Shown: positions 2,459 through 22,015, counted from the first letter of the stretch. The stretch is 35,326 nucleotides of DNA from a bacterium (GCA_030426295.1 JAUHYY010000002.1:1-35326), one strand, 5' to 3'. Numbers and translations are program-made. The notes: generated by a model from the sequence alone, not told the origin.

Positions 2459-5400
2459 ATGGTTATGAATCGTTTTGGAAAAATTAGTTCCCCTGAGTGG
2501 AAAAAGCTTTCGTCTCTTGCTGCTTTAGAGAGATCTAATCACATTGATGCAATTACAGAAGGTTTGAAGCATAATCGTACAGCTTTAGCTGAGATTGGTT
2601 TGTTTGCAACATCTACTGATGCTGAAATCGAAGATTTTGTTTCCGCTACCGTTCATAATGCTTTTTCATTAAGAAGGCTAGAAACTGTTCATCCTGATGA
2701 TTATGATCAAGAATATATTGACGAAGTTGAAGCTTTTGGGCAGGCTATTAGTGGTAAAGAAACAAATTTGAAGGCATTGCAGCATCAGGTCGCTAATGAT
2801 TATCTTCGGTTGTTGGTTTATGCCGGAGTTGTACAGCCAGTTCTTGCTGATGATTGGGTTGTTGATAGGCGTTTAGACACTGCTTTGTCGCTTGGTCTTT
2901 TGAATGATACTGAAGGTGAAGATCCACTTGATGGGGCGCGTGCAGTAAATGAGATGGAAGCTAGAGTTCGAGATAGGTTAGATGATAATAAACCTAGTAT
3001 TTTTGTTTCTATGGTTAAAGGGTCTGGTAATGGTCGTTTTGTACAAGACAAGAGGCTTGCTAGAGCAGAAGAAGAATATGAGCGAAAGTATACAGAAATT
3101 GGTTACGGTGATAGGCTTTATGTTTCTATAGATGATGTCTTGAGTAAGTTTCTTAAGCCAGATACAGATTATGATATAGAGTCGAATTTAGTAGGTTATA
3201 AATATTTTGTTTCTGTTTTAAACAGTTTGTTTAGAAGGTATTTGCATAATGAAAGAACTTTGGAGGGTAGAGAATGGAATAAAGGTACAGACTTTTTTGA
3301 TTTTAATAAGTTGTATGAGTTGCTTAGAGAGCCGGAAAAACTTAGATCTTTCGTAGGTTTTACAGAGAATCCTTATGAGGCTTCTTTATCTATGCGTTTT
3401 GTGCAGGATAGGTATCAAGATTTGCAGCTTGCTTTGTATATTGGCTTAGCACGTTTTGTTAAAGATTTAGGTGTTTATGATACAGAGAATTGGTTTAGTA
3501 GAATGCGCGGATGTATTAAGGAAGTTCGAGATTTTTGTGCAATAAGAGTAGAAGATTTAGTTACTTTACAAGATGCTCCTATAAGTCAGGTTGATTTCTT
3601 ACTTCTTTATAATTATTTGGGTCAGCTTAAGTGGCTTCGCCCAAAGATGGATTTTTCAGATTATGAATTTGATGCACATGATCCTGAGAAAAAGAGGAAT
3701 TTATTGCAATTTTTGATTCAAAGTTTTCAAGAACTTGAAAGTAGTTTTACTGAGGCATCTAATCGTATTCAACATTTGACTGCAGACGAAATAATAGATT
3801 TGCTTCAATTAGATTTTGATTCAAATGAGATACTAAGAATTTTCTTTGAAGATGAATTTTTAGACTCTATAAATTCTGATACACCGATTGATCTTAATGA
3901 TATTGCTGCTAATACAGGTGATGAAAAACCATGCTATGCAGAAGGTTACATTAGGGGCTTATTTGAAGATATGGCAGAGGTAATGGTTGATCCAAGAACA
4001 ATGGAGCCTATTAGAGTGCATTCTATGCTTGATGTTCGAGCAGGTTCTCATGGTAATGCAGAGGCTTTGAAGAGAGATTTAGCTGCTAATCTTTGCGTAC
4101 TTGAATCTGGAGGAGTTATTGCTTCCGATGCAATTGTTGAATCTTTTACTATGATGATTCGTTTAGATGTTGTTGATGCTTTGGTAGATGATAGTGGTGG
4201 TCATAGGGCAAGAGTAGTTCTTAAAGGTAATGAGCCCCAAGCTGTTATTATACAGAAAGCAGGTGCAGAGAGATTTTTACCTGAAACATTTTTTAAAAAG
4301 AGCTTTGATGGTAGGCATGTAGTTGAGGTTCCAGTTGCTAGGCGTATACCTTTTGTAGCAGTTAGTAATGAAGTTCGTAGAGTTTTAGTAGAGCAAGGTG
4401 AGCATACTTATAGAGGTATACAACATTCGATTGATCAGTTTATTCGAGACAATTATTTAGATGTGATTTTAGAAGGAGAAGTTAATGATTACTGGATTGA
4501 AAATATTGAGAAAACCCCACAGTTAAATTTACTGTTTAGTCTTTACAGTTTCATGCTCTATGTATATTCAAATATTAATTTTAAGGAGCGAATGATTCTT
4601 GCTAGAATTTTCAATAAATTCTACGGGCGATTTTTTGGAACTTTCAGTCCTGAATTTTATCATAAGCATATTACTCAAGGGTTGAGTCTTACTGGTAAAA
4701 GCAAAGATGTTTTTGAGCTTTATAAGGAAGCTCCTTTCATTGCTATATATGCTTTGGGTGTACAATTGTTTAACTATATATGCAGAGAGGAAGGTAGTGA
4801 TGAAATTAAATTCACTGGGTTTGAAGAAAAGCTGTATCAGGGGTGCTTAGCGATTATGGAAGAGTTCGGTTCAAGTGATAACTTTAGTTTAATACTAGAA
4901 AAGTTGAGACAATTTTTATTAGAAAATTTAGATGAAGATTCAGTAGTAGAGTTTTTAACTCGTGATTTTGATTCAGACAAGGTAGATAGCGATGATTCTG
5001 ATTCTGATAAGATTGATCCAGATTCTGTTAGGCTTTTGATTCCTAAGTTTAAAATGTTATTTGAAGAATATATTTCTACCCGTAGCAATGAAAGATTATC
5101 ATCAGATATTAATAGAATTTTTTATGCGATTGCTAACAGGTTTGAAATTGCATCTATAGATCTAAGTTTTATTGATGAATATTTCTTGCAAAGCATTATT
5201 GATGGTGTAGGAGATAAACTCCTTCATGACACAGTTGAAAGAGAAGGCGATGTTTCTTATGGAATGACTCCTATGCAAATTAGTGAGGTAGTTAGTAGAG
5301 TTTTTAGAGATTTAAAACGGTACTGCGGTGTTGAGGTTGAAGGTTATCAAAGTGGAATAGAAGTTAATTTTGATACTCAGCTTGCTTCATTGCCAAGAGA

Positions 5401-6454
5401 GGGTGATCAAACTCCTTATAATACTTGTCATGTAATTGATAAATCCGAGTTACCTGATAATCATGGGGTTAAAGAGGTTAGGGATTCTGAGAAATTTAAG
5501 ATGCAAGCAGATTTATTAGAAGTCAGAGAACGTACAGGTCTTGAGAAGCCAATTTTCTTTTTGAATTTTACTGATTGCGTGACTAATAGGTCTTTCTTGG
5601 ATCGATTTGAAGAGTGGGGGCTTATGGACTATGTAAATGTTCTAGATTTTGATTTGAGAGAAGGTACTATAGATAAGGCTCGTTCTGTTCTTAGAAAGCT
5701 TCAGCCATATATTGGTGAGCTTGAGTTTGTTGATGGTGATATAAAGAAAGTTTCAGGAATCAAAGGTGGTGCCGGTGGAATAGTTATTGTTGGAGGGAAT
5801 TGGGATAATACTCCGAGTGAAGGAGGAAAGTTAATTAAGAAATTTGTTACGTATCCGATTATGGATTCTATGACTAAGTTTAGTCCTGAAAGCAGGGCCC
5901 TTAGAGCGCTATATGTATGTTTTGGTGCTCAAGAACATCATGATGCTCTTGTATCTAGACATAAGGCAGATGAAGATGGTGATTATTCTAAAGTTGGCGT
6001 GCAGCAAGGAATGTTTGAGTTTGGTATGTTCCCATTTGAGAAAACAGGTAATGAGTATGATGATATTATTTTTAATGGAGCAGGTGATCAGGTTTCAGTA
6101 GTTGCGACGCATGGAGGTCAGATTCCAGAAATTGATGATACGGGTGTTTGTGTTCCAGTAGGTAAAAATCTTGTTACTGGAATGGCTATGGGGCATGTTA
6201 GTTTAGATGGAAGAGTGTTGGCTTATCCAGTGCATCCTGAAGTGGCGCCGAAAGATATTCAGCGTGTTTTATTCGAGGCTGGAGCGTTTAAATCGCAAAT
6301 AGCAGCGGCCATAGGTGGTTTACCTTTTGCATGTATTGAATCTGGATTTGATGTTGAGGTTCAAGGTGATGCAGGTGCACGAATTTTGTACAATAGTTTA
6401 AATCACCACTTGCGAGGTATAATCAGTCAATTAGATGAGCTGGAAGCAGCTTAA
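2459..6454 (+). CDS. Giant acidic cytoplasmic orphan protein (1331 aa) with a C-terminal class I glutamine amidotransferase-like domain
   Basis: Uninterrupted 3996-nt ORF with no signal peptide or TM segment seen. The C-terminal ~250 aa show the GATase1 order of motifs: IFFLNF (beta1), GGIVIVGG, YVCFGAQ (nucleophile elbow, Cys codon 5918-5920), VATHGG, AYPVHPE (His/Glu, His codon 6233-6235). I recognise nothing in the N-terminal ~1000 aa. Confidence 0.8.
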   Translation: MVMNRFGKISSPEWKKLSSLAALERSNHIDAITEGLKHNRTALAEIGLFATSTDAEIEDFVSATVHNAFSLRRLETVHPDDYDQEYIDEVEAFGQAISGKETNLKALQHQVANDYLRLLVYAGVVQPVLADDWVVDRRLDTALSLGLLNDTEGEDPLDGARAVNEMEARVRDRLDDNKPSIFVSMVKGSGNGRFVQDKRLARAEEEYERKYTEIGYGDRLYVSIDDVLSKFLKPDTDYDIESNLVGYKYFVSVLNSLFRRYLHNERTLEGREWNKGTDFFDFNKLYELLREPEKLRSFVGFTENPYEASLSMRFVQDRYQDLQLALYIGLARFVKDLGVYDTENWFSRMRGCIKEVRDFCAIRVEDLVTLQDAPISQVDFLLLYNYLGQLKWLRPKMDFSDYEFDAHDPEKKRNLLQFLIQSFQELESSFTEASNRIQHLTADEIIDLLQLDFDSNEILRIFFEDEFLDSINSDTPIDLNDIAANTGDEKPCYAEGYIRGLFEDMAEVMVDPRTMEPIRVHSMLDVRAGSHGNAEALKRDLAANLCVLESGGVIASDAIVESFTMMIRLDVVDALVDDSGGHRARVVLKGNEPQAVIIQKAGAERFLPETFFKKSFDGRHVVEVPVARRIPFVAVSNEVRRVLVEQGEHTYRGIQHSIDQFIRDNYLDVILEGEVNDYWIENIEKTPQLNLLFSLYSFMLYVYSNINFKERMILARIFNKFYGRFFGTFSPEFYHKHITQGLSLTGKSKDVFELYKEAPFIAIYALGVQLFNYICREEGSDEIKFTGFEEKLYQGCLAIMEEFGSSDNFSLILEKLRQFLLENLDEDSVVEFLTRDFDSDKVDSDDSDSDKIDPDSVRLLIPKFKMLFEEYISTRSNERLSSDINRIFYAIANRFEIASIDLSFIDEYFLQSIIDGVGDKLLHDTVEREGDVSYGMTPMQISEVVSRVFRDLKRYCGVEVEGYQSGIEVNFDTQLASLPREGDQTPYNTCHVIDKSELPDNHGVKEVRDSEKFKMQADLLEVRERTGLEKPIFFLNFTDCVTNRSFLDRFEEWGLMDYVNVLDFDLREGTIDKARSVLRKLQPYIGELEFVDGDIKKVSGIKGGAGGIVIVGGNWDNTPSEGGKLIKKFVTYPIMDSMTKFSPESRALRALYVCFGAQEHHDALVSRHKADEDGDYSKVGVQQGMFEFGMFPFEKTGNEYDDIIFNGAGDQVSVVATHGGQIPEIDDTGVCVPVGKNLVTGMAMGHVSLDGRVLAYPVHPEVAPKDIQRVLFEAGAFKSQIAAAIGGLPFACIESGFDVEVQGDAGARILYNSLNHHLRGIISQLDELEAA

Positions 6455-8064
6455 AATTGAGACATTACGAGTTCGATTACTCGAGCGTATTTTTCGATAA
6501 ATTCGTTTTCGAATATTTCTAGTTTTCTATTTGGATTAGTATAAAGACTTAGAGTTCCAACTAGTTCATCTTTGAAAACTAAGGGTATAAGCATTAATGA
6601 ACAAAGATTGTTTTTCTTTGCTAGTGATTTTGATTCGTATTTTGGTTCTTTACCAACGTCGATTATTTTTAGTGCTTTTCTTTCGGTGAATGCTTTTTCG
6701 TAAAGGCTGTCTTTGTATTTTGCAGTTTTCTTGCCTTGCCAATCTTGTCCTACGCCAAAGCTTGAGACTAGTTCAAGTTTTTTAGTGTCTTTGTCAAAAG
6801 TTCTGAGTACGCAAGCATCTACTTTTGTTAGCATAATAATAGAACTTACAATGAAGTCAGCTAGGCTTTGTCTGTCTGATCTTTCGTTTGCAAGTTCTAG
6901 TAGGTCGAAAATATAGTCATTTTGACGTCTTAGAATACCGAATTGATTGTATGCATCTTTGATTTTTTCGTATTTTATAGTGAGTTCTTCTTCGTATTTT
7001 GCCTGGTTTGTAATGTCTCTACAGATAATTAAATGGTGATCTGATTTGTTTCCGTTTTCGTCGAAGATAGGCGTAAGAGTTGCGGATACTTTTATTGTTT
7101 CGCCGTTATTGTGGAATGCATCTATCTCTAGGTTGTATAGTACGCTTTCTGGTGCAGTCATTTCTTTTGCATCGTAATCATGGAAAAGTGTGTTTAGGTT
7201 TTGCCCAATTATTTCTTCTTCTTTATAACCAAATACCATTTTGGCTCCTTTGTTCCATGATGTGATTTTACCATCTGGGTTAAATACAATTATGGCATCA
7301 CTTGCGTATTTAATTGCACTGTTAAGGATTCTTTCAGTTTCTTCTTTTTCTTTGATTTGTGAAAGGTCAGTAAGTATTCCAATTGTTCCTCCTTCTGGTG
7401 AGGGGCTTCCACTTACTATAACTGGTATTTCTTCACCTTTTTTATTGAGAACTATTCCTTCATAGATTGAGCTAATACCATGTTTTCGTTCTTGTTCATT
7501 TATAGATCTAACTTTTTGTGCAGTTTTTTTCTCCCAAATAAATTCAGGATTAATGTCGATTAGTTCTTCTAATTCGTAACCAGTTAATTTACAGAACTCT
7601 GGATTTGCATAAACTGTTCTTTCGTTTTCGTCACCTACCCATACACCTTCTTTCATGTTTTCAATTAGGGTTTGGTACATTGATTCTTTTTTCTTTAGTT
7701 CGGTCATGTCTGTCATTATTCCGACTGTTCCTCCGTCTGGAAGGGGAGTTCCATTAAGAAATACAGGAATTAGTTCTCCAGACTTAGTTTTTAAGTTTCC
7801 TTCATAGCTAGAGCTTATTCCTTTTTTACGGTGATTTTGATTGATGTATTTTACTTTTTCTGTACTTTCTTCGTCCCAGAAAATGTATGATTCTTCGCCT
7901 ATCATTTCGTCTAGGGTATAACCTAGCATTTCTGCGAATCTTGGATTTGCGTAAACAGTTCTTTCGTTTTCGTCACCTACCCATACAGCTTCGGCCATAT
8001 TTTCAATCAGGCCTTTGTATACGTCCTCAGTATTTAATACTTTCTTCAATTTGTTTTCTTGCAT
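6451..8064 (-). CDS. Cytoplasmic sensor protein with three PAS domains and a C-terminal GAF domain, no recognisable output domain
   Basis: Two near-duplicate PAS units (…VWVGDENERTVYANP.F…GY…E…) and a third PAS (IIVFNPDGKITSWNKGAKMVFGYKEEEIIGQNL…ICRDITNQ). These are followed by a GAF-like segment (VDACVLRTFDKDTKKLELVSSFG…CSLMLIPLVFKDELVGTLSLY). No HisKA/HATPase, GGDEF, EAL or HTH seen. Confidence 0.85.
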   Translation of the reverse strand: MQENKLKKVLNTEDVYKGLIENMAEAVWVGDENERTVYANPRFAEMLGYTLDEMIGEESYIFWDEESTEKVKYINQNHRKKGISSSYEGNLKTKSGELIPVFLNGTPLPDGGTVGIMTDMTELKKKESMYQTLIENMKEGVWVGDENERTVYANPEFCKLTGYELEELIDINPEFIWEKKTAQKVRSINEQERKHGISSIYEGIVLNKKGEEIPVIVSGSPSPEGGTIGILTDLSQIKEKEETERILNSAIKYASDAIIVFNPDGKITSWNKGAKMVFGYKEEEIIGQNLNTLFHDYDAKEMTAPESVLYNLEIDAFHNNGETIKVSATLTPIFDENGNKSDHHLIICRDITNQAKYEEELTIKYEKIKDAYNQFGILRRQNDYIFDLLELANERSDRQSLADFIVSSIIMLTKVDACVLRTFDKDTKKLELVSSFGVGQDWQGKKTAKYKDSLYEKAFTERKALKIIDVGKEPKYESKSLAKKNNLCSLMLIPLVFKDELVGTLSLYTNPNRKLEIFENEFIEKYARVIELVMSQF

Positions 8065-9163
8065 GCTTTGTCTTAATTATTTTAAGCCAGTCTGGATGAA
8101 CTAAATCTTTATCAGATGTATTGATTTGAATTTTATCACCAGTTTGAATTTTATATTTTATATCTACTTCTTTTTCCCCAACTTTAGCAGATTTTGTTTT
8201 GTTTCCAAGTCCACTATGAATCCGGTATGCGAAATCTAATATGGTTGCGCCATCATCAAGTATGTATATGTCGTTGTCTTGCGAAAAGAAATATACTCCT
8301 TTTTTAGCGTCTTCTTCCATTTTAGAGAAGTGGTCTAATACTTTTTGTTCTTTTTCACTTCTTAGTTTTGATTTTTTGTCTTTTGCGTATATCCAATGAG
8401 CTGCTAGACCGTTCTGAGAAAATTCGTGCATAGTCTTGGTTCGTATTTGAACTTCTATTGGAATATCTAAGTCATCGATCACTTTTGTAAGTCCAGTATG
8501 AAGACTTTGGTATCCATTTATTTTTGGGATAGTTATGTAGTCTTTAAAGAACTCCGTAATTGGCATGAAATTATCATGAAGTATGTTTAATACTTCGAAG
8601 CAGTCTTCTTGGTTGTTGTTGTTTACAATTATTCTGAATCCGAAAATATCTTTTAATTTTAGTACTTCTTTTTCTTTCTTAATTATTTTTGTATATATGC
8701 TGTGTATAGTCTTGTATCTGCCTATTAATTCGTAGTCTATTTTTGTTTCTTTGAGTATTGTATGGAGTTTTTCTGTTATTTTATCGATGATTATTTGTTC
8801 TCCGGCTTGGAATATTTTGAGTTTTTTACTGATCTCTTCGTATTCTTTTGGATTTGTGATTTTGAAACATATGTCATCGAGTTCTCTTTTTAGCGCGTGT
8901 ACACCGAATCTGTCACATAATGGTGAAAGTATATTTAGATATCTTTCAGCAAGTATTTTTTGATTTTTAGCACTTTCTTTATGTATTTCTTTCTGTAGTG
9001 CGTTTAAGAAGTCGAAAAATTCTTCTTTATGGTTTTTAAATTCCTCAAAGAAGTAGTTTGATAAAACTTCACGGTTTTTGCCCTTCTTGCGTGTGTTAAT
9101 CAAGAACATGCTCCAAGCCTTCTTTTTGTCAGGACTTACCTTTGTCATGTTTTGATTATCCAT
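8027..9163 (-). CDS. RelA/SpoT-homolog (p)ppGpp synthetase with TGS domain, lacking the HD hydrolase core and the C-terminal regulatory domains
   Basis: Synthetase motifs GRYKTIHSIYTKI, DIFGFRIIV, DYITIPKINGYQSLHT, EVQIRTKTMHEFSQNGLAAHWIYA. TGS: IYILDDGATILDFAYRIHSGLG…GDKIQI. Only the tail of the hydrolase domain is present (AERYLNILSPLCDRFGVHALKRELDDICF) and no HD motif. I chose the start at ATG 9163 (MDNQNMTK); the ORF track's 9223 start adds 20 implausible residues. The 3' end overlaps the sensor gene start by 38 nt. Confidence 0.8.
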   Translation of the reverse strand: MDNQNMTKVSPDKKKAWSMFLINTRKKGKNREVLSNYFFEEFKNHKEEFFDFLNALQKEIHKESAKNQKILAERYLNILSPLCDRFGVHALKRELDDICFKITNPKEYEEISKKLKIFQAGEQIIIDKITEKLHTILKETKIDYELIGRYKTIHSIYTKIIKKEKEVLKLKDIFGFRIIVNNNNQEDCFEVLNILHDNFMPITEFFKDYITIPKINGYQSLHTGLTKVIDDLDIPIEVQIRTKTMHEFSQNGLAAHWIYAKDKKSKLRSEKEQKVLDHFSKMEEDAKKGVYFFSQDNDIYILDDGATILDFAYRIHSGLGNKTKSAKVGEKEVDIKYKIQTGDKIQINTSDKDLVHPDWLKIIKTKHARKQIEESIKY

Positions 9164-9313
9164 TATTATGGTGATTTTGTAAAATAGGCATATAAATGTA
9201 CTCTTTTCTATTTGATTAATCAATGTTTTATGGCTTATTGAAGAGTTTTTTAGGTCTGTTTACTTTTGTTAGTTATGCAGTTAAAATTTTTTTAGTTATA
9301 TAATCATAATATT

Positions 9314-11102: not shown

Positions 11103-11263
11103 ATCTAAAAGTCAAAGTTGCAGAAATTATATCAGTAGATTGGCTAGGGTATAAGGTTTATCCGATTGACAAATTGCTGTGTCTAGTTCTTGGTCGTTCG
11201 CTAAGTTCTTCAGTTTTGTCCTTATTTGTGCTATAATTCTTGGATATATTTGATTAAGAGCCC

Positions 11264-12127
11264 TTGAAACGACATCTTAAAAATTTATTTATTCCGCATC
11301 ATGGAAATGGATTTCATCCGCATTTGTTTCATAGAAAGCGTTTGATAGGTTATGGTCTTTCGCTAGCCTTTATAAAAGTTTTTTTAGTTTCTTTAGTGCT
11401 GTTTGTGCCTATGGATGTTTATTCTTCGCCTGTTTTTCTTCAGGAGGAAAAAATGAGAATTATTGAGCTTATTAATGAAAAACGTGATGAATTAGGGGTG
11501 CCGAAAGTTGATATCCACGATAAGTTGAATAGATCTTCTTATGCCAAAGCTAAAGATATGTCTGCAGAGAGCTATTTTAGTCATAAAGGACCAAATGGTG
11601 AAAGCTTGAAAGGTTATCTTGATTATGTAGGTTATGATTTTATTTTAGCAGGTGAAAATTTGGCAGTTGGTTTTTATAACGCTCAAGATATTGTTGATGC
11701 CTGGGTGGATAGTCCAAGTCATTATGAAAATCTTATTGAAGAGGGATATCAAGACACTGGTTTAGCAGTACATAGTGGGGTTTATAAGAATAAGCAGACT
11801 TTTTTTGTGGTTAGTCATTATGGGCAACCTGTTGATGGTAACTGGCATTCTTCTGCTACATCTAACGAGGGTAGTTATGTTTTAGGTGAAGAAATTTCTA
11901 AGCCTGGATTCTATGCTAAGACGAAATATTACTTAGCTAAGAACACATTCTTTGAACCAATTAAAAAAGTTGTTGATACAAGTAATATTTTAAGTCTGAT
12001 TTTTATTATAATTTTTGGAGTTACATTTATGTTAAACATTATTGTTGAATATAAAACTCAGCATATACATGTTATTCGTGATTCTGCTTTGCTTATTATA
12101 ATGCTTTTTATTCTGTATATGCTTTAA
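11264..12127 (+). CDS. CAP/SCP (PR-1-like, YkwD-type) domain protein with N- and C-terminal TM anchors
   Basis: INEKRDELGVPKV…SAESYFSHKGPNGES…AGENLAVGF…DIVDAWVDSPSHYENL matches the CAP-domain signature (…GEN…W..S.gH..N…). TTG start as given by the track. Confidence 0.75.
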   Translation: MKRHLKNLFIPHHGNGFHPHLFHRKRLIGYGLSLAFIKVFLVSLVLFVPMDVYSSPVFLQEEKMRIIELINEKRDELGVPKVDIHDKLNRSSYAKAKDMSAESYFSHKGPNGESLKGYLDYVGYDFILAGENLAVGFYNAQDIVDAWVDSPSHYENLIEEGYQDTGLAVHSGVYKNKQTFFVVSHYGQPVDGNWHSSATSNEGSYVLGEEISKPGFYAKTKYYLAKNTFFEPIKKVVDTSNILSLIFIIIFGVTFMLNIIVEYKTQHIHVIRDSALLIIMLFILYML

Positions 12128-12157: not shown

Positions 12158-12625
12158 ATGGATCATAAGATTTTTTTAGAGAAAAGTTTAGATATTGCTC
12201 TTGCAAGTGCAGAGCAGGGAAGCGGTCCCTTTGGTTGTGTAATAGTTAAGGATGGCGAAATAATTGCTGAAGGCCACAATCAGGTAACTGAACTTAATGA
12301 TCCAACTGCTCATGCAGAAGTTCAAGCGATTAGAGCTGCGTGTAAGTATTTAGGTTCTTATCAACTTGATGGGTGTGTGGTCTATTCTAGTTGTATGCCT
12401 TGTCCTCAATGTTTAGGCGCACTTTATTGGGCTCGTCCAGAAAAGGTTTACTATGTTAATACAGCAGAAGAGGCTAGTGCGGCTGGATTTGATGATTCAT
12501 TTATATATGAGGAAATGTGTGGAGCTGGCATGGGTGGTAAGTTCGATTTAGAGCGGTTGTTAGTTGATAATGATCTGAGAGCGTTTGAAGCCTGGGAATC
12601 TAATCCTGATAAAAAATTATATTAG
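12158..12625 (+). CDS. CDA-fold nucleoside/nucleobase deaminase (GuaD / TadA-like, guanine deaminase-type)
   Basis: Zinc motifs HAEVQAI and PCPQCLGAL. The 155-aa size and FGCVIVKDGEIIAEGHN fit the GuaD-like subgroup. Confidence 0.85.
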   Translation: MDHKIFLEKSLDIALASAEQGSGPFGCVIVKDGEIIAEGHNQVTELNDPTAHAEVQAIRAACKYLGSYQLDGCVVYSSCMPCPQCLGALYWARPEKVYYVNTAEEASAAGFDDSFIYEEMCGAGMGGKFDLERLLVDNDLRAFEAWESNPDKKLY

Positions 12626-15769: not shown

Positions 15770-15907
15770 ATGAATAATTCACCTAAGAAATTAGATAGAA
15801 AAGTAGTTTACGAAAGTGATTGGGGTATTGGAGGTTCGATATTGACTATATTTGTTTGCTCTGGTTTTTTATGCAATGTAGTATTCTTTCGTATTGATTT
15901 ATTTTGA
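15770..15907 (+). CDS. Possible 45-aa small ORF upstream of fic (one hydrophobic segment)
   Basis: ATG 15770, TGA 15905-15907, ending 2 nt before the fic ATG. MNNSPKKLDRKVVYESDWGIGGSILTIFVCSGFLCNVVFFRIDLF. No homology recognised. Confidence 0.2.
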   Translation: MNNSPKKLDRKVVYESDWGIGGSILTIFVCSGFLCNVVFFRIDLF

Positions 15908-15909
15908 TT

Positions 15910-16998
15910 ATGAAACCATTTAAATTATCGAAATTACCGCTTAACAGTTTAGATTGGGAGAAATTTGTTCATCTTATTGGTAAGGCTAATGCAGAGGTGG
16001 CTAGATTTGATGGTTTACTTCAAAGTATGCCAAATCCTGCAGTTTTACTTTCACCGCTAAGTACAAGAGAGGCGGTTTTGTCTTCCAAAATTGAAGGTAC
16101 ACAGGCGACCTTACGAGAAGTATTTGAGTATGAAGCTCAGATGGAAGGTGATGTACGTCGATATGGTGACATTCAAGAGGTTTTGAATTATAGGAAAGCT
16201 ATGAATTTTGCAATTCAAGAGTTAAAAAAAACGCCTTTGTCTACTAGGGTTATAAAGAAAATACATGAGATTCTTATGAATAGTGTTAGAGGTGAAAATA
16301 AGAATCCAGGTAACTTTAGAAAGATTCAAGTTTGGATAGGTAAATCTGGTACAACTCTTGAAACTGCAAGTTATGTTCCTCCTAGTCCTGATGATTTGCC
16401 TGATCTAATGTCTGATTTAGATAAATATTTTCATATTGATGAAAAAGATGTTCTTGTACAATTGGCAATTGTTCATGCCCAGTTTGAGTTAATTCATCCA
16501 TTTTTAGATGGTAACGGTAGAGTTGGTCGTATTCTTATGCCTTTATTTCTTTACTATAAAGATATTCTTTCGTCACCAATGTTTTATTTGAGTGAATATT
16601 TTGAAAGTGATAGAGATGGTTATTATAGTGCTCTTCAAGGTATTTCAGAAAATGGTGATTGGGAAGGATGGATAGAGTATTTTTTGAATGCAGTAATAGA
16701 TCAATCGAAACAAAATATTGAAAAGGCAAAAGCTATACATAAATTGTATGATGTTAAGAAAGAGAAGATAGCAACTTTAACTAGATCAAGATTTGCTATC
16801 AAAACATTGGACTTTATTTTTTCAGTTCCAATTTTTACAACTACTCAATTTAGGGAAAGTTCTGGCGTTCCAAAAGCGAGCACTTCTAGAATGTTAGATG
16901 CTTTAGAAAAGGGTGCAGTTCTCAAAGTTATTCGAGAAAGTGCTGGTAACCAACCTAAGACGTATGCATTTACAAAGTTATTGGACTTAGTTAACTAA
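15910..16998 (+). CDS. fic: Fic-domain protein (AMPylase-type; Fic_N + Fic + C-terminal winged helix), class II auto-inhibited
   Basis: Canonical Fic motif HPFLDGNGRVGRIL (HxFx[DE]GNGRxxR). N-terminal inhibitory motif SSKIEG (S/TxxxE[GN]). C-terminal wHTH (SSGVPKASTSRMLDALEKGAVLK). ATG at 15910 preferred over the track's TTG at 15904. Confidence 0.85.
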   Translation: MKPFKLSKLPLNSLDWEKFVHLIGKANAEVARFDGLLQSMPNPAVLLSPLSTREAVLSSKIEGTQATLREVFEYEAQMEGDVRRYGDIQEVLNYRKAMNFAIQELKKTPLSTRVIKKIHEILMNSVRGENKNPGNFRKIQVWIGKSGTTLETASYVPPSPDDLPDLMSDLDKYFHIDEKDVLVQLAIVHAQFELIHPFLDGNGRVGRILMPLFLYYKDILSSPMFYLSEYFESDRDGYYSALQGISENGDWEGWIEYFLNAVIDQSKQNIEKAKAIHKLYDVKKEKIATLTRSRFAIKTLDFIFSVPIFTTTQFRESSGVPKASTSRMLDALEKGAVLKVIRESAGNQPKTYAFTKLLDLVN

Positions 16999-17086
16999 AT
17001 TCGTGACTTTTCTTGCGTATCATCTATGGAACGCAAAATAAACCGTGTTCCACTTTAGTACATATGTGGAACGCACAGTGAATATA

Positions 17087-17195
17087 CTTACCATTTATAA
17101 AGGGTCTGTTTGGTGAGTAGTATTTACCTTTATTAAGCCGATATGTAGACTTGGGTGGTAGAAATTTAGTTCTGTCTCGAGGGGTACACCCGTGT
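17087..17195. repeat. 109-nt direct repeat, copy 2 (internal att-like site)
   Basis: cttaccatttataaagggtct…gaggggtacacccgtgt is about 91% identical to 15603-15711. It is not preceded by tRNA sequence. Confidence 0.8.
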
Positions 17196-17203
17196 AGAGT
17201 ATA

Positions 17204-17788
17204 TTAGCATATTTCTTTTTGTATTTCTGATAAAGCCTCTTCGTATTTAGTGGTAACTTTATGAAAAAGATTCTCTTTATTATAGTATTTTTCGAGAAAC
17301 TTTAAAAATTCTGGTGCAACCTCCGAATCTTTCTTTATTTCGTTTAAAATATTCTTGAAATTTTTTTTGTTAGAAATTGAGTTTAGGAAGCAAATTGCGT
17401 CTATATTTCGCACTTTTTCTTGTTCAGTTAGCATCGTGAGAGTGATTTCCATGTCATAAAATTCCTTTACAGCTTTTTTGAATTCTAATACTTTTTTGTA
17501 TACATTATTTGAATTGAATATTTTAAATTCTTCTAAATAATCCAATTTTAGTATTAATTCATATTGGAGTGCTGTAGCTTCTGCTTCGCTTTTGATGTTA
17601 GTTTTTAATGTTTCTAAAGTAGTCTTTGCAACAATATTTGCCCCAGTTTGAATGAATTTCTTTAAAAGAGATATTTTTATTTCTATTTTATGTTTATTAA
17701 TATCAAGTTTATATGAAAACCAAGCTGTATATACTCTTGTGAATATACCTGCTAGATATGAAATGAGGGCAATTATGAGATATTCCAT
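17204..17788 (-). CDS. Hypothetical protein with an N-terminal TM helix and a long helical region, 194 aa
   Basis: MEYLIIALISYLAGIFTRVYTAWF (TM) followed by a Lys/Glu-rich helical sequence. Island cargo; no recognisable motif. Confidence 0.55.
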   Translation of the reverse strand: MEYLIIALISYLAGIFTRVYTAWFSYKLDINKHKIEIKISLLKKFIQTGANIVAKTTLETLKTNIKSEAEATALQYELILKLDYLEEFKIFNSNNVYKKVLEFKKAVKEFYDMEITLTMLTEQEKVRNIDAICFLNSISNKKNFKNILNEIKKDSEVAPEFLKFLEKYYNKENLFHKVTTKYEEALSEIQKEIC

Positions 17789-18222
17789 ATGAGTTCAAAA
17801 ATTGAATATAGTGATCATTGAAAATGATATAGGTGTCCAAGTTAATTTTACTCTAACTAAAATGGAGTCTATTCTCAATGTGTAGTAAGTATGGATGCAG
17901 CAAAGATAAAGATGAGTTATTTGGATTTATAAATTTATGGATTTTAATTTTGTGATTTAGAGAAAAAGGTATTAAAGGGTAAGGCTTTAGCGCGTGAGCA
18001 GGATAATGTTAATCGAGTGGCAGATTTCCAGTTGGCTAAGCGTGGAGATGTTGATGATAAATTGAAATGGCTTCACTATGATCATGAAAAACAAATTTTT
18101 CATATGGTTCATTTAATGACAATTATAACATATTTTCCAGTACTACTTATTATACTGAGTCAAGTTATTGATATTTCATTCCTTAGATTGCTTATTGCAG
18201 GTCTTTGAGGTACTTTTGAATC

Positions 18223-18341
18223 GTACCCCATATGCCGTTTTGCACGAATTCCTGATTTATTCACTTCACCCGATAGCGGGTAGAGGCGGGTAGGTCAGGT
18301 CCGCTATCTTAGGTCTTCGTGATCGATGGTATGTGGGGTAC
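18223..18341. other. About 120-nt inverted-repeat / highly structured element (candidate ncRNA, MITE-like element or recombination site)
   Basis: 11-bp terminal pairing GTACCCCATAT (18223-18233) / ATGTGGGGTAC (18331-18341). Inner 8-bp pairing GATAGCGG (18272-18279) / CCGCTATC (18301-18308). Tandem GCGGGTAG x2 (18276-18283, 18285-18292). CCTACCC (18347-18353) is complementary to GGGTAGG (18287-18293). Confidence 0.5.
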
Positions 18342-18377
18342 ACCTGCCTACCCACTTTTGTTATTTAATTAAAATTT

Positions 18378-18623
18378 ATGAAGTTTAAATTTAGGCCTGC
18401 TAAAAAGTTTTTTATATATTTCTACTTAAGTATCTTGATTGTAAGTAGTTTTTATTGGTTTGAGTTTAGGCCAATTCATATAAGGGTTGAATGTTCTAAT
18501 GAGACTCGAGAAGCTATGAAGGAATCTTTACAGGGACTTGATTCTAATGATATTCAAGGTGTAGCTACATTTATAAGTTTATATTTTGACCTTTGTTTAG
18601 CTGACCATGGTCTTGAAAGGTAG
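18378..18623 (+). CDS. Small membrane protein, 81 aa
   Basis: One TM segment (FFIYFYLSILIVSSFYWF). Island cargo; no recognisable motif. Confidence 0.4.
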   Translation: MKFKFRPAKKFFIYFYLSILIVSSFYWFEFRPIHIRVECSNETREAMKESLQGLDSNDIQGVATFISLYFDLCLADHGLER

Positions 18624-18760
18624 TTGTTTCAGAGGGGCATTAAACTATTATGTCATTGTTTTATATATTAGTATTTATTGATTCTTTTAGTTTGTAAGAG
18701 TTATCTTTTCGTACTTAAACAATAATAAAGTTCTTACTGCAATGCTGTAGCATGAGCATT

Positions 18761-18790
18761 TTGCATTTTTGTAATGTGATATAGTATAAT
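18761..18790 (+). promoter_or_regulatory. Candidate promoter of the internal recombinase gene
   Basis: TTGCAT (18761-18766), an 18-nt spacer, TATAAT (18785-18790), 36 nt before ATG 18826. Confidence 0.4.
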
Positions 18791-18825
18791 TTAGTTACAT
18801 ATCAACAGGCGAAATTTTATTTATT

Positions 18826-19803
18826 ATGAATAAAGGTTTGCCTATAACTATTTATAAACAGAGTGATAGTTCTAAAGATGGTAAGAGATCCATTTGGTTC
18901 TTTTGGGATCAATTTTCTTATATGTATTTAAGGACAGGTAGAAGTGAAGTTACTGTTAAGTCTGTTAAGAGTACTTTAAAGTTTATCACTTCAAATACTT
19001 CTATTTTTTCTATAGAAGACTTGAATAACCCGAGATTGGTTGAAGACTCGTTATTCCATTTAAAGGAAGTGAGAGGGTTTTCAAATTGTACTTATAATTC
19101 GTACAGGAAGAATATTGGTATATTTCTTAATTGGCTCGAGAAGTATGATTACTTGTCTGTAAATAACATTCATAAGGTTGAAAAGTGTAAGTCTAGAATT
19201 GTTGAACAGTTAGTATTAAAGGATGAGGATATTGCTTTAGTTATTACACATATAAGAACTCAATGTGGTTCTAGATTATTAAGATTACGAAATGGTTTCT
19301 TTATTGATTTACTTAGATTTACTGGAGCTCGTTTATGTGAGTTGATGGATTTAAAAGTATCTAATATAACAAAACTTAAAAATGGAGAGTATCGTTTGGT
19401 TATCAGTGGTAGAAAGCAGAAAGGTAGAAATAGATATTATAGGTTAGATTCTTGGGTGCGTGATTCTTATCTAGAGTATATGGAGTACAGAAATAAGCTG
19501 GGTAGAAAAGAAGATAATTTATTTATATCTCAGTCTAAGAGAACGGGATGGACCTCTAAAGGAGTGACAAAATTTTTAAGGAGGATGTCAAAAGAAATTG
19601 GAGTTAATGTTACTTCTTATGGTTTTCGACGGTATGTAGCTACAAAACTGTATTTACGAGGTGTAGAGTTGAGGCAAATAGCTGACTATCTAGGTCATAC
19701 TAGGCTAACAACTACTATGAGGTATGTTGAGAGATGCAGTTTATTGACTGAAAATTGTGGGAAGGTTCTTTTAGGTTGTGTTGATGAGTATGAAGCTAGT
19801 TGA
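18826..19803 (+). CDS. Tyrosine recombinase / phage-type integrase (divergent)
   Basis: Catalytic-domain landmarks: LLRFTGARLCEL (Arg I), YGFRRYVAT (box II with Tyr in place of the usual first His), LGHTRLTTTMRYV (His and Tyr nucleophile). The N-terminal SAM-like core-binding region is plausible. Confidence 0.8.
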   Translation: MNKGLPITIYKQSDSSKDGKRSIWFFWDQFSYMYLRTGRSEVTVKSVKSTLKFITSNTSIFSIEDLNNPRLVEDSLFHLKEVRGFSNCTYNSYRKNIGIFLNWLEKYDYLSVNNIHKVEKCKSRIVEQLVLKDEDIALVITHIRTQCGSRLLRLRNGFFIDLLRFTGARLCELMDLKVSNITKLKNGEYRLVISGRKQKGRNRYYRLDSWVRDSYLEYMEYRNKLGRKEDNLFISQSKRTGWTSKGVTKFLRRMSKEIGVNVTSYGFRRYVATKLYLRGVELRQIADYLGHTRLTTTMRYVERCSLLTENCGKVLLGCVDEYEAS

Positions 19804-19885
19804 TTTGTTGTTCTTTGAAATATTATTTAAAAATCTGTAATATCTAATACTTATTGTGTGTTTTAGATATAACTCATTCGTGTTT

Positions 19886-21001
19886 ATGGATATTCAAAAG
19901 TGTATAGATTGTGAATCTGACTTAGTTGGCGCAGATGTAATCCCTGATTTTTCTAATAAACATATGGATTTAAAATGTCCAAAATGTGGTTATACTATCC
20001 AGTATTCGTTACCAGAGTTAGATAGAAAGGTAATATATTTAGATTCAAATTTTTTAATTAATGCATCGCATGGTGATGTAAATTATTTAAGAATTTATGA
20101 AAAATTGAAACATCTCACTTATACAAAACAAATGGTTATATGTCCTAATTCAGAAGTTCATGAATATGAAGTTTATGGCAGTCCAGCAGGTGATTTTTTA
20201 TTTACTTTGAATGCAGGTATTGGTTTTTCTTATACAGATTCATTATCTAAACTTCAGATTTTTCGTGCTTTTAAAAATTTTCTTTTAGAAAGTAAATCTC
20301 CGTTATATTTGAAAGAAGATTTTTTAGAATCTTCCCCTCAATGGAACTTGCTGAGACGTGGAGGTGCGTGGTCTCATACAAAAATTGTAAAAGACAAAGA
20401 TAAGATTGTAAGAGAATTAGCATCCATTCGTGATGGAAGGTGGTGCAAAGGTGCGGTTATGGAGGATATATTTCAGCATGAGTATTTAGGTTTTTTAAAG
20501 CTCGAAATTGATCGATATGCGCAAAATAGAAGTGGAATGTGCTCTCCAAGTGCGCGTATTTATTCTATAGTCGATTTATTACGGACTAATGGTTATATCC
20601 AAAAGGATATAGTCCATGCATTGAATTCGTTTTGTATTTATATTGGTTATAATTATATCCCTAAATTATTAATAGAGGCAGCATTATTTACTGGTTATGC
20701 TTATGATTATGTGAAAGGAAGTAAGACTAGTATAGATGGAAATACACTTTATGATATCTGGTTTTTAGGTTCTTATTTACCTTTTTGTGATGCAATGTTC
20801 ATAGATAAGCCAATGTTTAATTTGATAAATCAGATAAAAAGTAATCCAGGTAGTCGAGGAGTTCCAGATATAGATGAATATTGTTGCACGAATCTTTTTA
20901 TCCACTCAACTTTGGATGAATTTGAAAATTACTTGGATGATTTAGAGTCAGGATATAAGTATCAAGAAGTTTCAGATAAAATAGGTGTATATTATCCTTA
21001 A
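19886..21001 (+). CDS. Orphan protein with an N-terminal CxxC…CxxC zinc ribbon, 371 aa
   Basis: MDIQKCIDCES…LKCPKCGYTIQY, then VIYLDSNFLINA… and near the C-terminus LGSYLPFCDAMFIDKP, which is reminiscent of PIN-like acidic positions (tentative). ATG 19886 preferred over the track's TTG 19856. Its stop overlaps the stop of the convergent integrase (TTAA). Confidence 0.7.
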   Translation: MDIQKCIDCESDLVGADVIPDFSNKHMDLKCPKCGYTIQYSLPELDRKVIYLDSNFLINASHGDVNYLRIYEKLKHLTYTKQMVICPNSEVHEYEVYGSPAGDFLFTLNAGIGFSYTDSLSKLQIFRAFKNFLLESKSPLYLKEDFLESSPQWNLLRRGGAWSHTKIVKDKDKIVRELASIRDGRWCKGAVMEDIFQHEYLGFLKLEIDRYAQNRSGMCSPSARIYSIVDLLRTNGYIQKDIVHALNSFCIYIGYNYIPKLLIEAALFTGYAYDYVKGSKTSIDGNTLYDIWFLGSYLPFCDAMFIDKPMFNLINQIKSNPGSRGVPDIDEYCCTNLFIHSTLDEFENYLDDLESGYKYQEVSDKIGVYYP

Positions 21002-21894
21002 TTCAGCAAATGCATTTCAATAGATTTACTCATCTGATGGTCAGAGCAGTATAGATATATTGTAGTCGTTGTTATTTTGCTGTGTCCCATGATTTTAGAC
21101 AAAGTGTATATATCGCATCCACCTTCAAGCATAAGAGTTGCGAAAGAGTGCCTGAGAGTGTGAGCTGAGAAGTCTAGTTTTGTTTTGTCTCTTAGTTTCT
21201 TTATCAGGTTGTTGATTCCTTTGTTACCGAAAGGTTTTGGTTTGTGAAGAGATAAAAAGAAGTAGGTTAGTTCTGCATACTTTAGTTTATCTCTGTGTTT
21301 AGTAAATTCTTTTAGGTAAGTATATAGTTTCATGTTCATAGGAATCATTCTATCTTTTCCTCCTTTACCTTGATTAATGAAGATAGTTCGTTTTTCAAAG
21401 CAAATATCATTCATCATTAGATTGCCTACCTCTGACTTACGTAATCCTGCAAAGAGCATAATTGCGATTACAGCTCTATTCCTTATACTTTCGTATTTGT
21501 ACCTATATCTCATGTGGTAGCTAGTATCTAGTACTAATTGTGCCTGTTCTCGTGATAACGTTCTTGGTAGTTTCTTTTCAAGTTTAGGTTTTTCTATAGA
21601 AGCTACATGGTTCTCTTCGATGTAGTTTTTCTCTACTAACCATTTAGCAAAACAGTTTAAATGTTTGTGGTGACTTCTAAAAGTCTCTGCTTGCCATTTT
21701 CGATTAAGTCTTCCTTTGTAGAACCATTGTTCAATGACTTCTTGGTTTAGTTCGCTAATATATTTGATTCCTTGGTCTTTCAGGAATAGTTTAACCGTGC
21801 ATTTGTAGCCATTGGTAGTGTGAGGGCTATAGTTTTTGATGATTGAGCAGTAGTTGAGGTAATTCTCAAATACTTCCATAAGTGAAATTTCCAT
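20998..21894 (-). CDS. int: Tyrosine recombinase / integrase (XerC/D-like), adjacent to tRNA-Thr
   Basis: AGLRKSEVGNL (Arg I), HTLRHSFATLML (H-x-x-R), MGHSKITTTTIYLY (His, Tyr nucleophile). It starts 46 nt from the 3' end of the tRNA. Confidence 0.88.
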   Translation of the reverse strand: MEISLMEVFENYLNYCSIIKNYSPHTTNGYKCTVKLFLKDQGIKYISELNQEVIEQWFYKGRLNRKWQAETFRSHHKHLNCFAKWLVEKNYIEENHVASIEKPKLEKKLPRTLSREQAQLVLDTSYHMRYRYKYESIRNRAVIAIMLFAGLRKSEVGNLMMNDICFEKRTIFINQGKGGKDRMIPMNMKLYTYLKEFTKHRDKLKYAELTYFFLSLHKPKPFGNKGINNLIKKLRDKTKLDFSAHTLRHSFATLMLEGGCDIYTLSKIMGHSKITTTTIYLYCSDHQMSKSIEMHLLN

Positions 21895-21939
21895 AATACG
21901 TAGGTTATATATTATGGATGCACGCCCTAGATGGCTTTA

Positions 21940-21985
21940 TGGAGCCACCGACGAGAGTTGAACTCGTGACCTTCACCTTACCATG
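21940..21985 (-). repeat. Proximal att repeat (inside the functional tRNA-Thr)
   Basis: Identical 46 nt to 15566-15611. Identity ends inside the anticodon loop (…cttaccatg). Confidence 0.85.
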
Positions 21986-22015
21986 GTGCTGCTCTACCAA
22001 CTGAGCTACGGCGGC
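21940..22015 (-). tRNA. tRNA-Thr (anticodon GGU), CCA encoded
   Basis: Minus strand GCCGCCG-TA-GCTC-AGTTGGTA-GAGC-A-GCACC-ATGGTAA-GGTGA-AGGTC-ACGAG-TTCAACT-CTCGT-CGGTGGC-T-CCA. It folds as a cloverleaf with one G4:U69 wobble and a 27:43 G/A mismatch. Loop ATGGTAA gives anticodon GGT. Confidence 0.9.

Follow-up and report, generated by a model that had tools for sequence, protein, structure and literature searches.

In this work we have analysed a giant gene carried on a 35,326-nt stretch of bacterial DNA (GCA_030426295.1, JAUHYY010000002.1:1-35326; the whole stretch is called the window here). Our results lead us to favour, with modest confidence, the view that its product is a two-module enzyme of a fast-evolving, uncharacterised family, in which a methyltransferase-like core is joined to an amidotransferase and works together with a PAS/GAF protein and a Rel-TGS protein. 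At the fold level, the core is the N-terminal ~680 residues, which are methyltransferase-like and occur in nearly all members of the family. At the level of both fold and motif, the C-terminal module is an amidotransferase of the GuaA/COG0518 type, with Cys1154, His1259, Glu1261 and the glutamine-binding Gln1158 intact.

The giant gene and its locus

The gene occupies nt 2459..6454 of the + strand, is the longest open reading frame (ORF) of the window and codes for 1331 aa from its ATG; the public gene call (P0001) begins two codons downstream, at a second ATG at 2465, and gives 1329 aa. The protein contains 228 Asp and Glu residues versus 145 Lys and Arg, with a net charge of about -83, so translation and composition bear out the acidic 1331-aa ORF reported on this strand by an earlier reading of the sequence, called here the first-pass annotation. 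That annotation had also seen no transmembrane segment, and none is indicated, the highest 19-residue Kyte-Doolittle mean being 1.43. Since near-identical copies of the gene sequence are present in several independent metagenomes (algae, biofloc, aquaculture and wastewater), the gene is real and not an assembly artefact.

The gene arrangement is as first described. On one side, umuD (2036-2335, - strand) and umuC (817-2043, - strand) are divergent from the giant gene. On the other side, a gene for a PAS-PAS-PAS-GAF sensor with no output domain (6451..8064, - strand) converges on it, their 3΄ ends overlapping by 4 nt, and upstream of this sensor gene, overlapping it, lies a gene for a RelA_SpoT synthetase with a TGS domain and without the HD hydrolase domain (8027..9223, - strand).

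A family of two modules

The protein had been described as an orphan. In a word-indexed search, 5.8 billion proteins yielded only the giant protein itself, which was also the sole result when a 46-sequence alignment was the query, and a scan of genome contigs with the giant protein found no relative. An exhaustive search with HMMER, run over 1.84 billion cluster representatives, in contrast recovered 56 relatives at E<1e-3, mostly of 1000-1450 residues, so the orphan status was not upheld. Thus a rapidly evolving protein can seem an orphan to word-based searches and yet be part of a family and gene module that are conserved. The HMMER matches of the relatives split into two separate regions of the query, and local jackhmmer searches within the family set placed an N module (query aa ~60-680) in 56 of the 57 proteins and a C module (aa ~1010-1331) in 43 of them. 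A degenerate DNA pattern for the family motif HLHKGPGNG, run against metagenome contigs, gave 18 matches, six of which were real family members.

The C-terminal amidotransferase domain

The class I glutamine-amidotransferase domain covers aa 1007-1331 (nt 5477..6451, + strand), as delimited by alignments, profile, Pfam, AlphaFold and Foldseek. All the motifs quoted in the first-pass annotation were found in their places (IFFLNF at aa 1032, GGIVIVGG at 1106, YVCFGAQ at 1152, VATHGG at 1215 and AYPVHPE at 1255), with Cys1154 inside YVCFGAQ, His1259 and Glu1261 inside AYPVHPE, and a Cys-to-His spacing of 105 residues. Along the + strand the domain presents the strand IFFLNF (aa 1032-1037), preceded by an N-terminal helix and followed by a DCxTN motif that contains Cys1040; GGNW (aa 1112-1115; GGSW in the family); the nucleophile elbow, where in the AlphaFold model a strand (1148-1153) leads to Cys1154 (nt 5918-5920) and to a helix (1155-1168) bearing Gln1158; THGG (aa 1217-1220); His1259 (nt 6233-6235) and Glu1261 (nt 6239-6241); and a C-terminal helical extension (aa 1264-1330).

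Among 30 C-domains of the family (alignment A1), the only invariant columns are those of Cys1040, Gly1113, Cys1154 and His1259, and Gln1158 and Glu1261 reach at least 90% conservation. The best conserved columns of the C-module alignments thus coincide with the residues that the first-pass annotation had picked out. DCxTN, GGSW and THSGH (THGGQ in the window copy) are further conserved features of the module, and THSGH is presumably the counterpart of the SHGD motif of GuaA. Judged from the aligned sequences, the motifs of the domain are more than chance.

When the family profile of the C module was compared with the PDB, amidotransferases of the GuaA type (GMP synthase subunit A) were matched at E=2.8e-9, the Cys of the family motif ICFGxQ lying over that of GICLGHQ and HPE over HPE. 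After GuaA, weaker matches were obtained with PabA, TrpG, HisH, PurQ/PurL and the Arabidopsis gamma-glutamyl peptidase 1 (GGP1). The Pfam family GATase (PF00117) is matched by 25 of the 30 family members (best E=1.6e-10), and two members carry the IMG product name 'GMP synthase-like glutamine amidotransferase'. The window copy departs from the family consensus in this domain (GGSW to GGNW, THSGH to THGGQ and QxHPE to PVHPE), and because of these second-shell departures it misses PF00117 directly, its catalytic residues being kept.

The AlphaFold model of aa 1007-1331, computed with the family alignment as input, reached a pLDDT of 89 and a pTM of 0.91. Foldseek gave 61 matches in the PDB at E<=0.001, and the best 50 of these 61 all show the fold of class I amidotransferases (MetA/HTS, ADC synthase/PabA, TrpG, GGP1, CTP synthase, GuaA and CarA). 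The family profile, the Pfam matches of the relatives, the model and the Foldseek search therefore all support the class I amidotransferase-like C-terminus with ordered Cys, His and Glu that had been proposed at first. The grouping of the three residues as a triad in space is a prediction from the motif-level alignment to solved enzymes. A DJ-1/PfpI-like enzyme had been offered as another identity for the domain; this was set aside, since neither a structure nor a Pfam family of that kind appears among the listed matches (profile, Pfam and the best 50 of 61 from Foldseek). The gamma-glutamyl hydrolase option, from the same source, has in its favour the GGP1 matches, with a profile E=3.3e-5 and TM-scores of 0.54-0.56.

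Could the domain be an acyl-transferring Cys-His-Glu enzyme of the MetA type (homoserine O-acyltransferase) and not a glutaminase? The best Foldseek E-values are indeed to MetA/HTS structures (2vdj at 9e-9, 2ghr and 7cbe), but sequence profiles followed down to E=10 returned amidotransferases and the gamma-glutamyl peptidase with no MetA, the Pfam matches are to GATase and not to HTS, and the family retains the GuaA-type motifs ICFGxQ and QxHPE, together with THSGH if its assumed likeness to SHGD is accepted. We consider an acyltransferase of this type very improbable.

The N-terminal methyltransferase-like module

The ~1000 residues that precede the amidotransferase domain had been left without any family, a judgement that no longer holds for aa ~125-625, which in the model and in constructs of homologues correspond to a split class I methyltransferase-like fold. 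We assign this module, with moderate confidence, to a methyltransferase-like Rossmann fold interrupted by an insertion of ~260 residues. All its elements lie on the + strand. An N-terminal helical region (aa 12-122, nt 2492..2824), delimited by the AlphaFold secondary structure and by conservation, is followed by the near-invariant motif DWxVxR (D132, W133 and R137). The first half of the fold (aa ~125-232, nt 2831..3154), for which model, conservation and homologue constructs agree, contains strand β1 (aa 182-187), the Gly-rich loop of motif I, KGSGNG (aa 187-192; HLHKGPGNG in the family), and Asp218, the conserved acidic residue that closes strand β2. The mostly helical insertion (aa 235-490, nt 3161..3928), recognised in the model and by conservation, splits the fold and bears the near-invariant residues D281-x-N283, F463, F467 and D478-L479-N480. 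In the second half (aa 495-625, nt 3941..4333; model, conservation and constructs), strands β3-β7 accompany a motif II-like RAGSHG (aa 527-532; RSDSHE in the family), a motif III-like LESGGVIASDA (aa 548-558; LxPGGVLxTDG in the family), the invariant S562 and the nearly invariant R568.

An AlphaFold model of aa 1-1014 built from the 46-sequence alignment is mostly of pLDDT 85-95 over aa ~20-680 and unconfident over aa 690-1014. Its first half consists of a strand (182-187), the Gly-rich loop, a helix (193-204) and a strand (211-217), after which residues 235-490 are largely helical; its second half consists of strands 497-499 and 520-525, a helix (534-547), a strand (548-556), a helix (569-579) and a hairpin (582-589/592-600). 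The resulting order, β1-αA-β2-[insert]-β3-β4-αD-β5-αE-β6-β7, is that of class I S-adenosylmethionine (SAM) methyltransferases. Of the 50 best Foldseek matches of the native N-module model, nearly all are class I methyltransferases, NNMT, METTL18, NRMT1/2, METTL6 and DnrK among them, with a best probability of 0.94 and every E-value at or above 0.1.

Native homologues match Methyltransf_25/11/12 weakly (E~0.01, under the Pfam thresholds). In a set of 26 constructs (alignment A3) the insertion was left out, the columns of query aa 120-235 being fused to those of 488-685. Three of the 26 match methyltransferase families; the window's own construct does not. The construct of the relative P0030 scores 26.9 bits with Methyltransf_11, versus a gathering cut-off of 21.2 (profile positions 1-93 of 95, E=7.7e-6), and also matches Methyltransf_23 (E=7.7e-6) and Methyltransf_25 (E=2.6e-5). 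All seven of its PDB matches at E<10 are methyltransferases, and in the alignment to 9fcx motif I (LHLGGGSG over LDLGAGTG), the β2 Asp (post-I) and motif III (LKPGGI over LRPGGI) coincide. When the N-module alignments A2 and A3 were used as profiles against the PDB, no significant structure was obtained for the N part; the N-terminal helices, insertion and linker likewise matched no structure or family.

G188, G190 and G192 are kept in 39-41 of the 46 sequences and D218 in 38 of them. The window copy retains all four, as well as S530/H531, G551/G552 and D557. The polar residues that are invariant and specific to the family in this module (D132, W133, R137, D281, N283, N480, R527, S530, H531, S562 and R568) probably form the substrate site.

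The linker and the question of an ammonia tunnel

Between the two modules lies a variable acidic linker (aa 690-1006, nt 4526..5476, + strand), recognised by low model confidence and poor conservation, whose length ranges over ~110-330 aa across the family. It holds the Asp/Ser tract that had been noted at first; the tract is present on the + strand as DSDKVDSDDSDSDKIDPDS, and its limits are corrected from ~4964-5033 to nt 4970-5026 (aa 838-856).

The linker bears on the possibility that the protein is a glutamine-dependent amidotransferase in which NH3 set free at Cys1154 would pass through a channel to the N module, the latter being a new acceptor ('synthase') domain and the relatives made of the N module only being ammonia-dependent. 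In support of such an enzyme, in sequence the C-domain is closest to true amidotransferase subunits (GuaA, PabA and TrpG), 43 of the 57 members carry both modules in one protein, and the layout resembles that of large PurL, a weak profile match at E=1.1. An acceptor domain of methyltransferase fold would, however, be unprecedented among known amidotransferases; tunnel enzymes usually have tight interfaces, whereas this linker is 110-330 residues long, variable and modelled with low confidence; and no activating domain of the ATP-grasp, PP-loop or AIRS type was detected. No AIRS/AIRS_C domain was seen in the window protein or in 46 relatives, nor was a PurS-like domain detected in the N-terminal part. 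Identities as a large PurL or a PP-loop ATP-pyrophosphatase were dropped, no AIRS/AIRS_C or PP-loop domain having been detected. We lean to the view that the long variable linker and the existence of an N-only relative weigh against an obligatory tunnel. NAD synthetases exist in NH3-dependent and glutamine-dependent forms, and domain loss is thus compatible with a tunnel. The C-domain may instead work by itself as a hydrolase, in the manner of GGP1. Taken together, we judge the channelling enzyme unlikely, and retain as our preferred reading the two-module enzyme with an accessory amidotransferase domain.

Rate of divergence and host lineage

Compared with seven other loci, the window shows 21-24% identity in the giant protein, 48-58% in the PAS/GAF protein and 39-48% in Rel. 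In the closest relative found (locus L010), UmuC, UmuD and a methylguanine-methyltransferase-domain protein are 69-72% identical to those of the window (UmuC 72%), while its giant protein, P0002, reaches only 27.6% identity over the N part and 41% over the C part. P0002 seemingly ends at the start of the amidotransferase domain (L010:11100-11180), an effect of a run of Ns in a scaffold gap; the ORF at 11181-11906 of the same locus is the rest of its amidotransferase domain, to which the 41% identity refers.

Such rapid divergence raises the possibility that the window copy is a catalytically decayed scaffold (a pseudo-enzyme) that is maintained solely for contacts with the PAS/GAF and Rel proteins. 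The low identity of the giant protein (21-24%, versus 48-58% for PAS and 39-48% for Rel; 27.6% for the N part of the closest relative versus 72% for UmuC), the replacement of several family-consensus positions in the window copy and the loss of the amidotransferase domain in one lineage would all fit with decay, but Cys1154, Gln1158, His1259, Glu1261 and the motif I glycines have been kept in spite of the divergence, as expected under purifying selection on active sites. We hold a decayed scaffold to be quite improbable, and continue with an active two-module enzyme.

One cluster member is labelled Candidatus Peregrinibacteria. In P0035 (L014:4868-8389), P0012, P0024, P0029, P0031 and P0033, Trp was observed at conserved Gly positions, so that, for example, GGSW reads WWSW. 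The giant gene of L014 (4868-8389) contains 58 in-frame TGA codons versus 7 TGG, which implies that UGA is read as Gly (code 25), as in Gracilibacteria/Absconditabacteria, and that the public proteins were mistranslated with UGA as Trp. In the window itself TGA is a stop codon, in five of its 29 ORFs. From the Peregrinibacteria label and the UGA=Gly code it follows that the family belongs to the candidate phyla radiation, and its host range is bacteria of that radiation, of the Peregrinibacteria/Gracilibacteria type.

Gene neighbourhood and partner genes

The first-pass annotation had proposed looking for homologues that co-occur with the neighbouring genes, and such co-occurrence was found. 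The giant gene is met by a convergent PAS/GAF gene in 11 of 11 distinct loci that have DNA beyond its 3΄ end, and the RelA_SpoT-TGS gene comes next after it in nine of the ten loci that reach far enough, with L011 as the exception. The loci with a convergent PAS/GAF gene are the window, L006/L007, L008, L009, L011, L012 (=L028), L013, L014, L015, L022, L029 and L034. In most loci the 3΄ ends of the two genes overlap by 4-39 nt (6451-6454 in the window; also L006, L008, L009, L011, L012 and L015), and gaps are present instead in L013 (75 nt) and L034 (34 nt). Where the convergent ends overlap, there is no room for a terminator between the genes, and each transcript must end antisense to the other. 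The upstream neighbours vary between most loci, and a TrmB-like regulator adjoins in four loci and lies 5 kb away in the window.

With Bacillus subtilis Rel, the Rel-like protein gives an alignment at E=1.7e-54. Because this alignment starts only at residue ~154 of Rel, the HD (p)ppGpp hydrolase domain is missing from the protein, which also stops after TGS. An overlap of 38 nt between its gene and the downstream PAS/GAF gene suggests that the two are translationally coupled. A scan of genome contigs with the Rel neighbour recovered only distant relatives, of 30-36% identity and with no synteny.

The relative P0019 (704 aa, L034) comprises just the N module. It retains the PAS, Rel and TrmB neighbourhood, and no amidotransferase gene is found in the 14 kb around it. 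Since the neighbourhood is kept here without the amidotransferase, it is the N module that constantly accompanies the sensor and alarmone genes, and the amidotransferase is probably an accessory. Unannotated proteins of 713, 693 and 600 aa beside relatives in L015 and L013 were considered as paralogues of the N module and were ruled out, showing no similarity to it by BLASTP.

A conserved trio with a fast-evolving member may also recall a conflict system of the anti-phage or toxin type, with the Rel-like protein as toxic alarmone synthetase and the giant protein as sensor or antitoxin. The rapid evolution of the giant protein would suit such a system, and the Rel-like protein matches the PADLOC candidate defence model PDC-S33 (E=4.4e-18); that match, however, spans the generic synthetase domain. 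The same Rel has a TGS domain and can be aligned to housekeeping Rel/RelA over 315 residues, PADLOC returned no defence-system match for the giant or the PAS/GAF protein, and in most loci, including a 724-kb contig, the genes lie among housekeeping genes. A conflict system appears to us hardly probable. Thus the MetA-type acyltransferase, the decayed scaffold and the conflict system are all less likely explanations, and we keep to the two-module enzyme that works with the sensor and the synthetase.

Other features of the window

A candidate integrated element may extend over 15904-22015, beside a tRNA gene (21943-22015, - strand). It contains a Fic/DOC protein (15904-16998), tyrosine recombinases at 18826-19803 (+ strand) and 20998-21894 (- strand), and unannotated ORFs; the GC content at 17-21 kb is 0.30-0.32, versus ~0.35 elsewhere in the window. 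A CAP/SCP protein (cysteine-rich secretory protein family, 11264-12127) adjoins a protein of the cytidine/deoxycytidylate-deaminase type (12158-12625), which also matches the MafB19-like deaminase family. The GC skew is strongly positive along nearly the whole contig (1-35326), cumulative to 8.4, whatever the gene orientation, which suggests that the whole contig lies on one replichore.

Proposed function

What would such a protein do? We propose that Cys1154 would attack glutamine, or a gamma-glutamyl-linked substrate, at the gamma-amide, giving a gamma-glutamyl thioester, with His1259 and Glu1261 acting as general base. The N module would bind SAM or a related nucleotide-like cofactor and modify a substrate, and the amidotransferase domain, lost in some lineages, may be an accessory to this activity. 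The giant protein would act together with the PAS/GAF sensor and the hydrolase-less Rel-TGS synthetase as a module of nutrient or stress signalling. A more specific scheme, to which we give little credence at present, would make the giant protein the covalent-modification arm of a new stringent-response circuit, in which the Cys-His-Glu domain (glutamine-deamidating or glutamine-sensing) and the methyltransferase-like domain modify the PAS/GAF sensor, or make a ligand for it, and the sensor in turn acts on Rel-TGS.

Several of our observations weigh against the two-module enzyme and temper our confidence in it. To our knowledge, no known enzyme combines a methyltransferase-like fold with an amidotransferase fold, and the joint chemistry would be without precedent. 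The window protein, searched whole and as three segments against Pfam, NCBIfam and the PDB sequences, gave zero matches even at E<=10, and its domain assignments are made by transitive homology, at the level of sequence, through its relatives. For the N module, the Foldseek E-values given above are not significant, the sequence-based assignment to methyltransferases is significant only in insertion-deleted constructs of few homologues, the profile of those constructs (A3) found no methyltransferase among the PDB sequences, and the window copy departs from the consensus in this module too (RSDSHE to RAGSHG and PGG to SGG). Either site of the window copy could be weakened by second-shell substitutions. 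As for the partners, the functional link is drawn solely from conserved adjacency, the genes being convergent and not co-transcribed, and the giant gene was absent from the RNA-seq runs searched.

Literature searches found no description of the split methyltransferase-like module, of its fusion to an amidotransferase, or of the gene trio and the association of a PAS/GAF protein with a truncated Rel. The amidotransferase domain belongs to a known superfamily, within which it is divergent, and what is new is a domain architecture made from known folds; the N module is without a Pfam family. The strict pairing with PAS/GAF, usually together with the truncated Rel, points to an undescribed form of nutrient sensing or of control of alarmone synthesis, in a setting of ultra-small, host-dependent bacteria whose Rel at these loci lacks both the HD hydrolase and the domains that follow TGS. 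The substrate of the giant protein, once defined, would add a new type of reaction to the amidotransferase or the methyltransferase superfamily.

Comparison with known systems

With the GuaA/COG0518 amidotransferases (PDB 1wl8, the Pyrococcus GMP synthase subunit A; 1o1y, TM1158), the C-domain has in common the fold, the ICFGxQ-type elbow and QxHPE. In contrast to GuaA, the domain here forms the C-terminus of a protein whose preceding ~1000 residues are not of the GuaA type, no ATP-pyrophosphatase domain is present, and the amidotransferase domain adds an N-terminal helix, a poorly modelled insert at aa ~1090-1105 and a C-terminal helical extension of ~65 residues; the invariant Cys1040 in DCxTN is specific to the giant family. 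The Arabidopsis GGP1 (PDB 9k7i) and the Peptidase_C26 hydrolases share the fold and the predicted triad, and GGP1 gives the highest query-normalised TM-scores (the 0.54-0.56 cited above, with the profile match at 3.3e-5). GGP1 hydrolyses gamma-glutamyl conjugates without an ammonia acceptor, so that such chemistry is possible within the subfamily, although GGP1 is a stand-alone enzyme of ~250 residues and Peptidase_C26 is matched by only one of 30 giant-family members, weakly (E=0.097).

The N module shares with the class I SAM methyltransferases (Methyltransf_11/23/25/12; PDB 9fcx; NNMT, METTL18 and NRMT by fold) the β1-β7 order of the model, the Gly-rich motif I, the acidic residue after β2 and the LxPGG of motif III. 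Unlike them, it is split by the helical insertion of ~260 residues after β2/αB, and the acidic residue of motif I is replaced in the family (HLHKGPGNG). The large formylglycinamidine synthase (lgPurL, ~1300 aa) is similar in size and also carries a C-terminal amidotransferase after a long catalytic region, but the likeness, with its weak E=1.1, is one of layout only, AIRS/AIRS_C and PurS-like domains not being detected in the giant N part.

As to the partners, the neighbouring Rel shares synthetase and TGS with the long RelA/SpoT homologues. It differs from them by being without HD and everything past TGS, by its probable translational coupling to an output-less PAS/GAF protein and by its constant pairing with the giant protein. 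The logic of the circuit outlined above would be analogous to chemoreceptor adaptation by CheR, CheB and CheD, from which it would differ in its unrelated folds and in acting on (p)ppGpp synthesis and not on a kinase.

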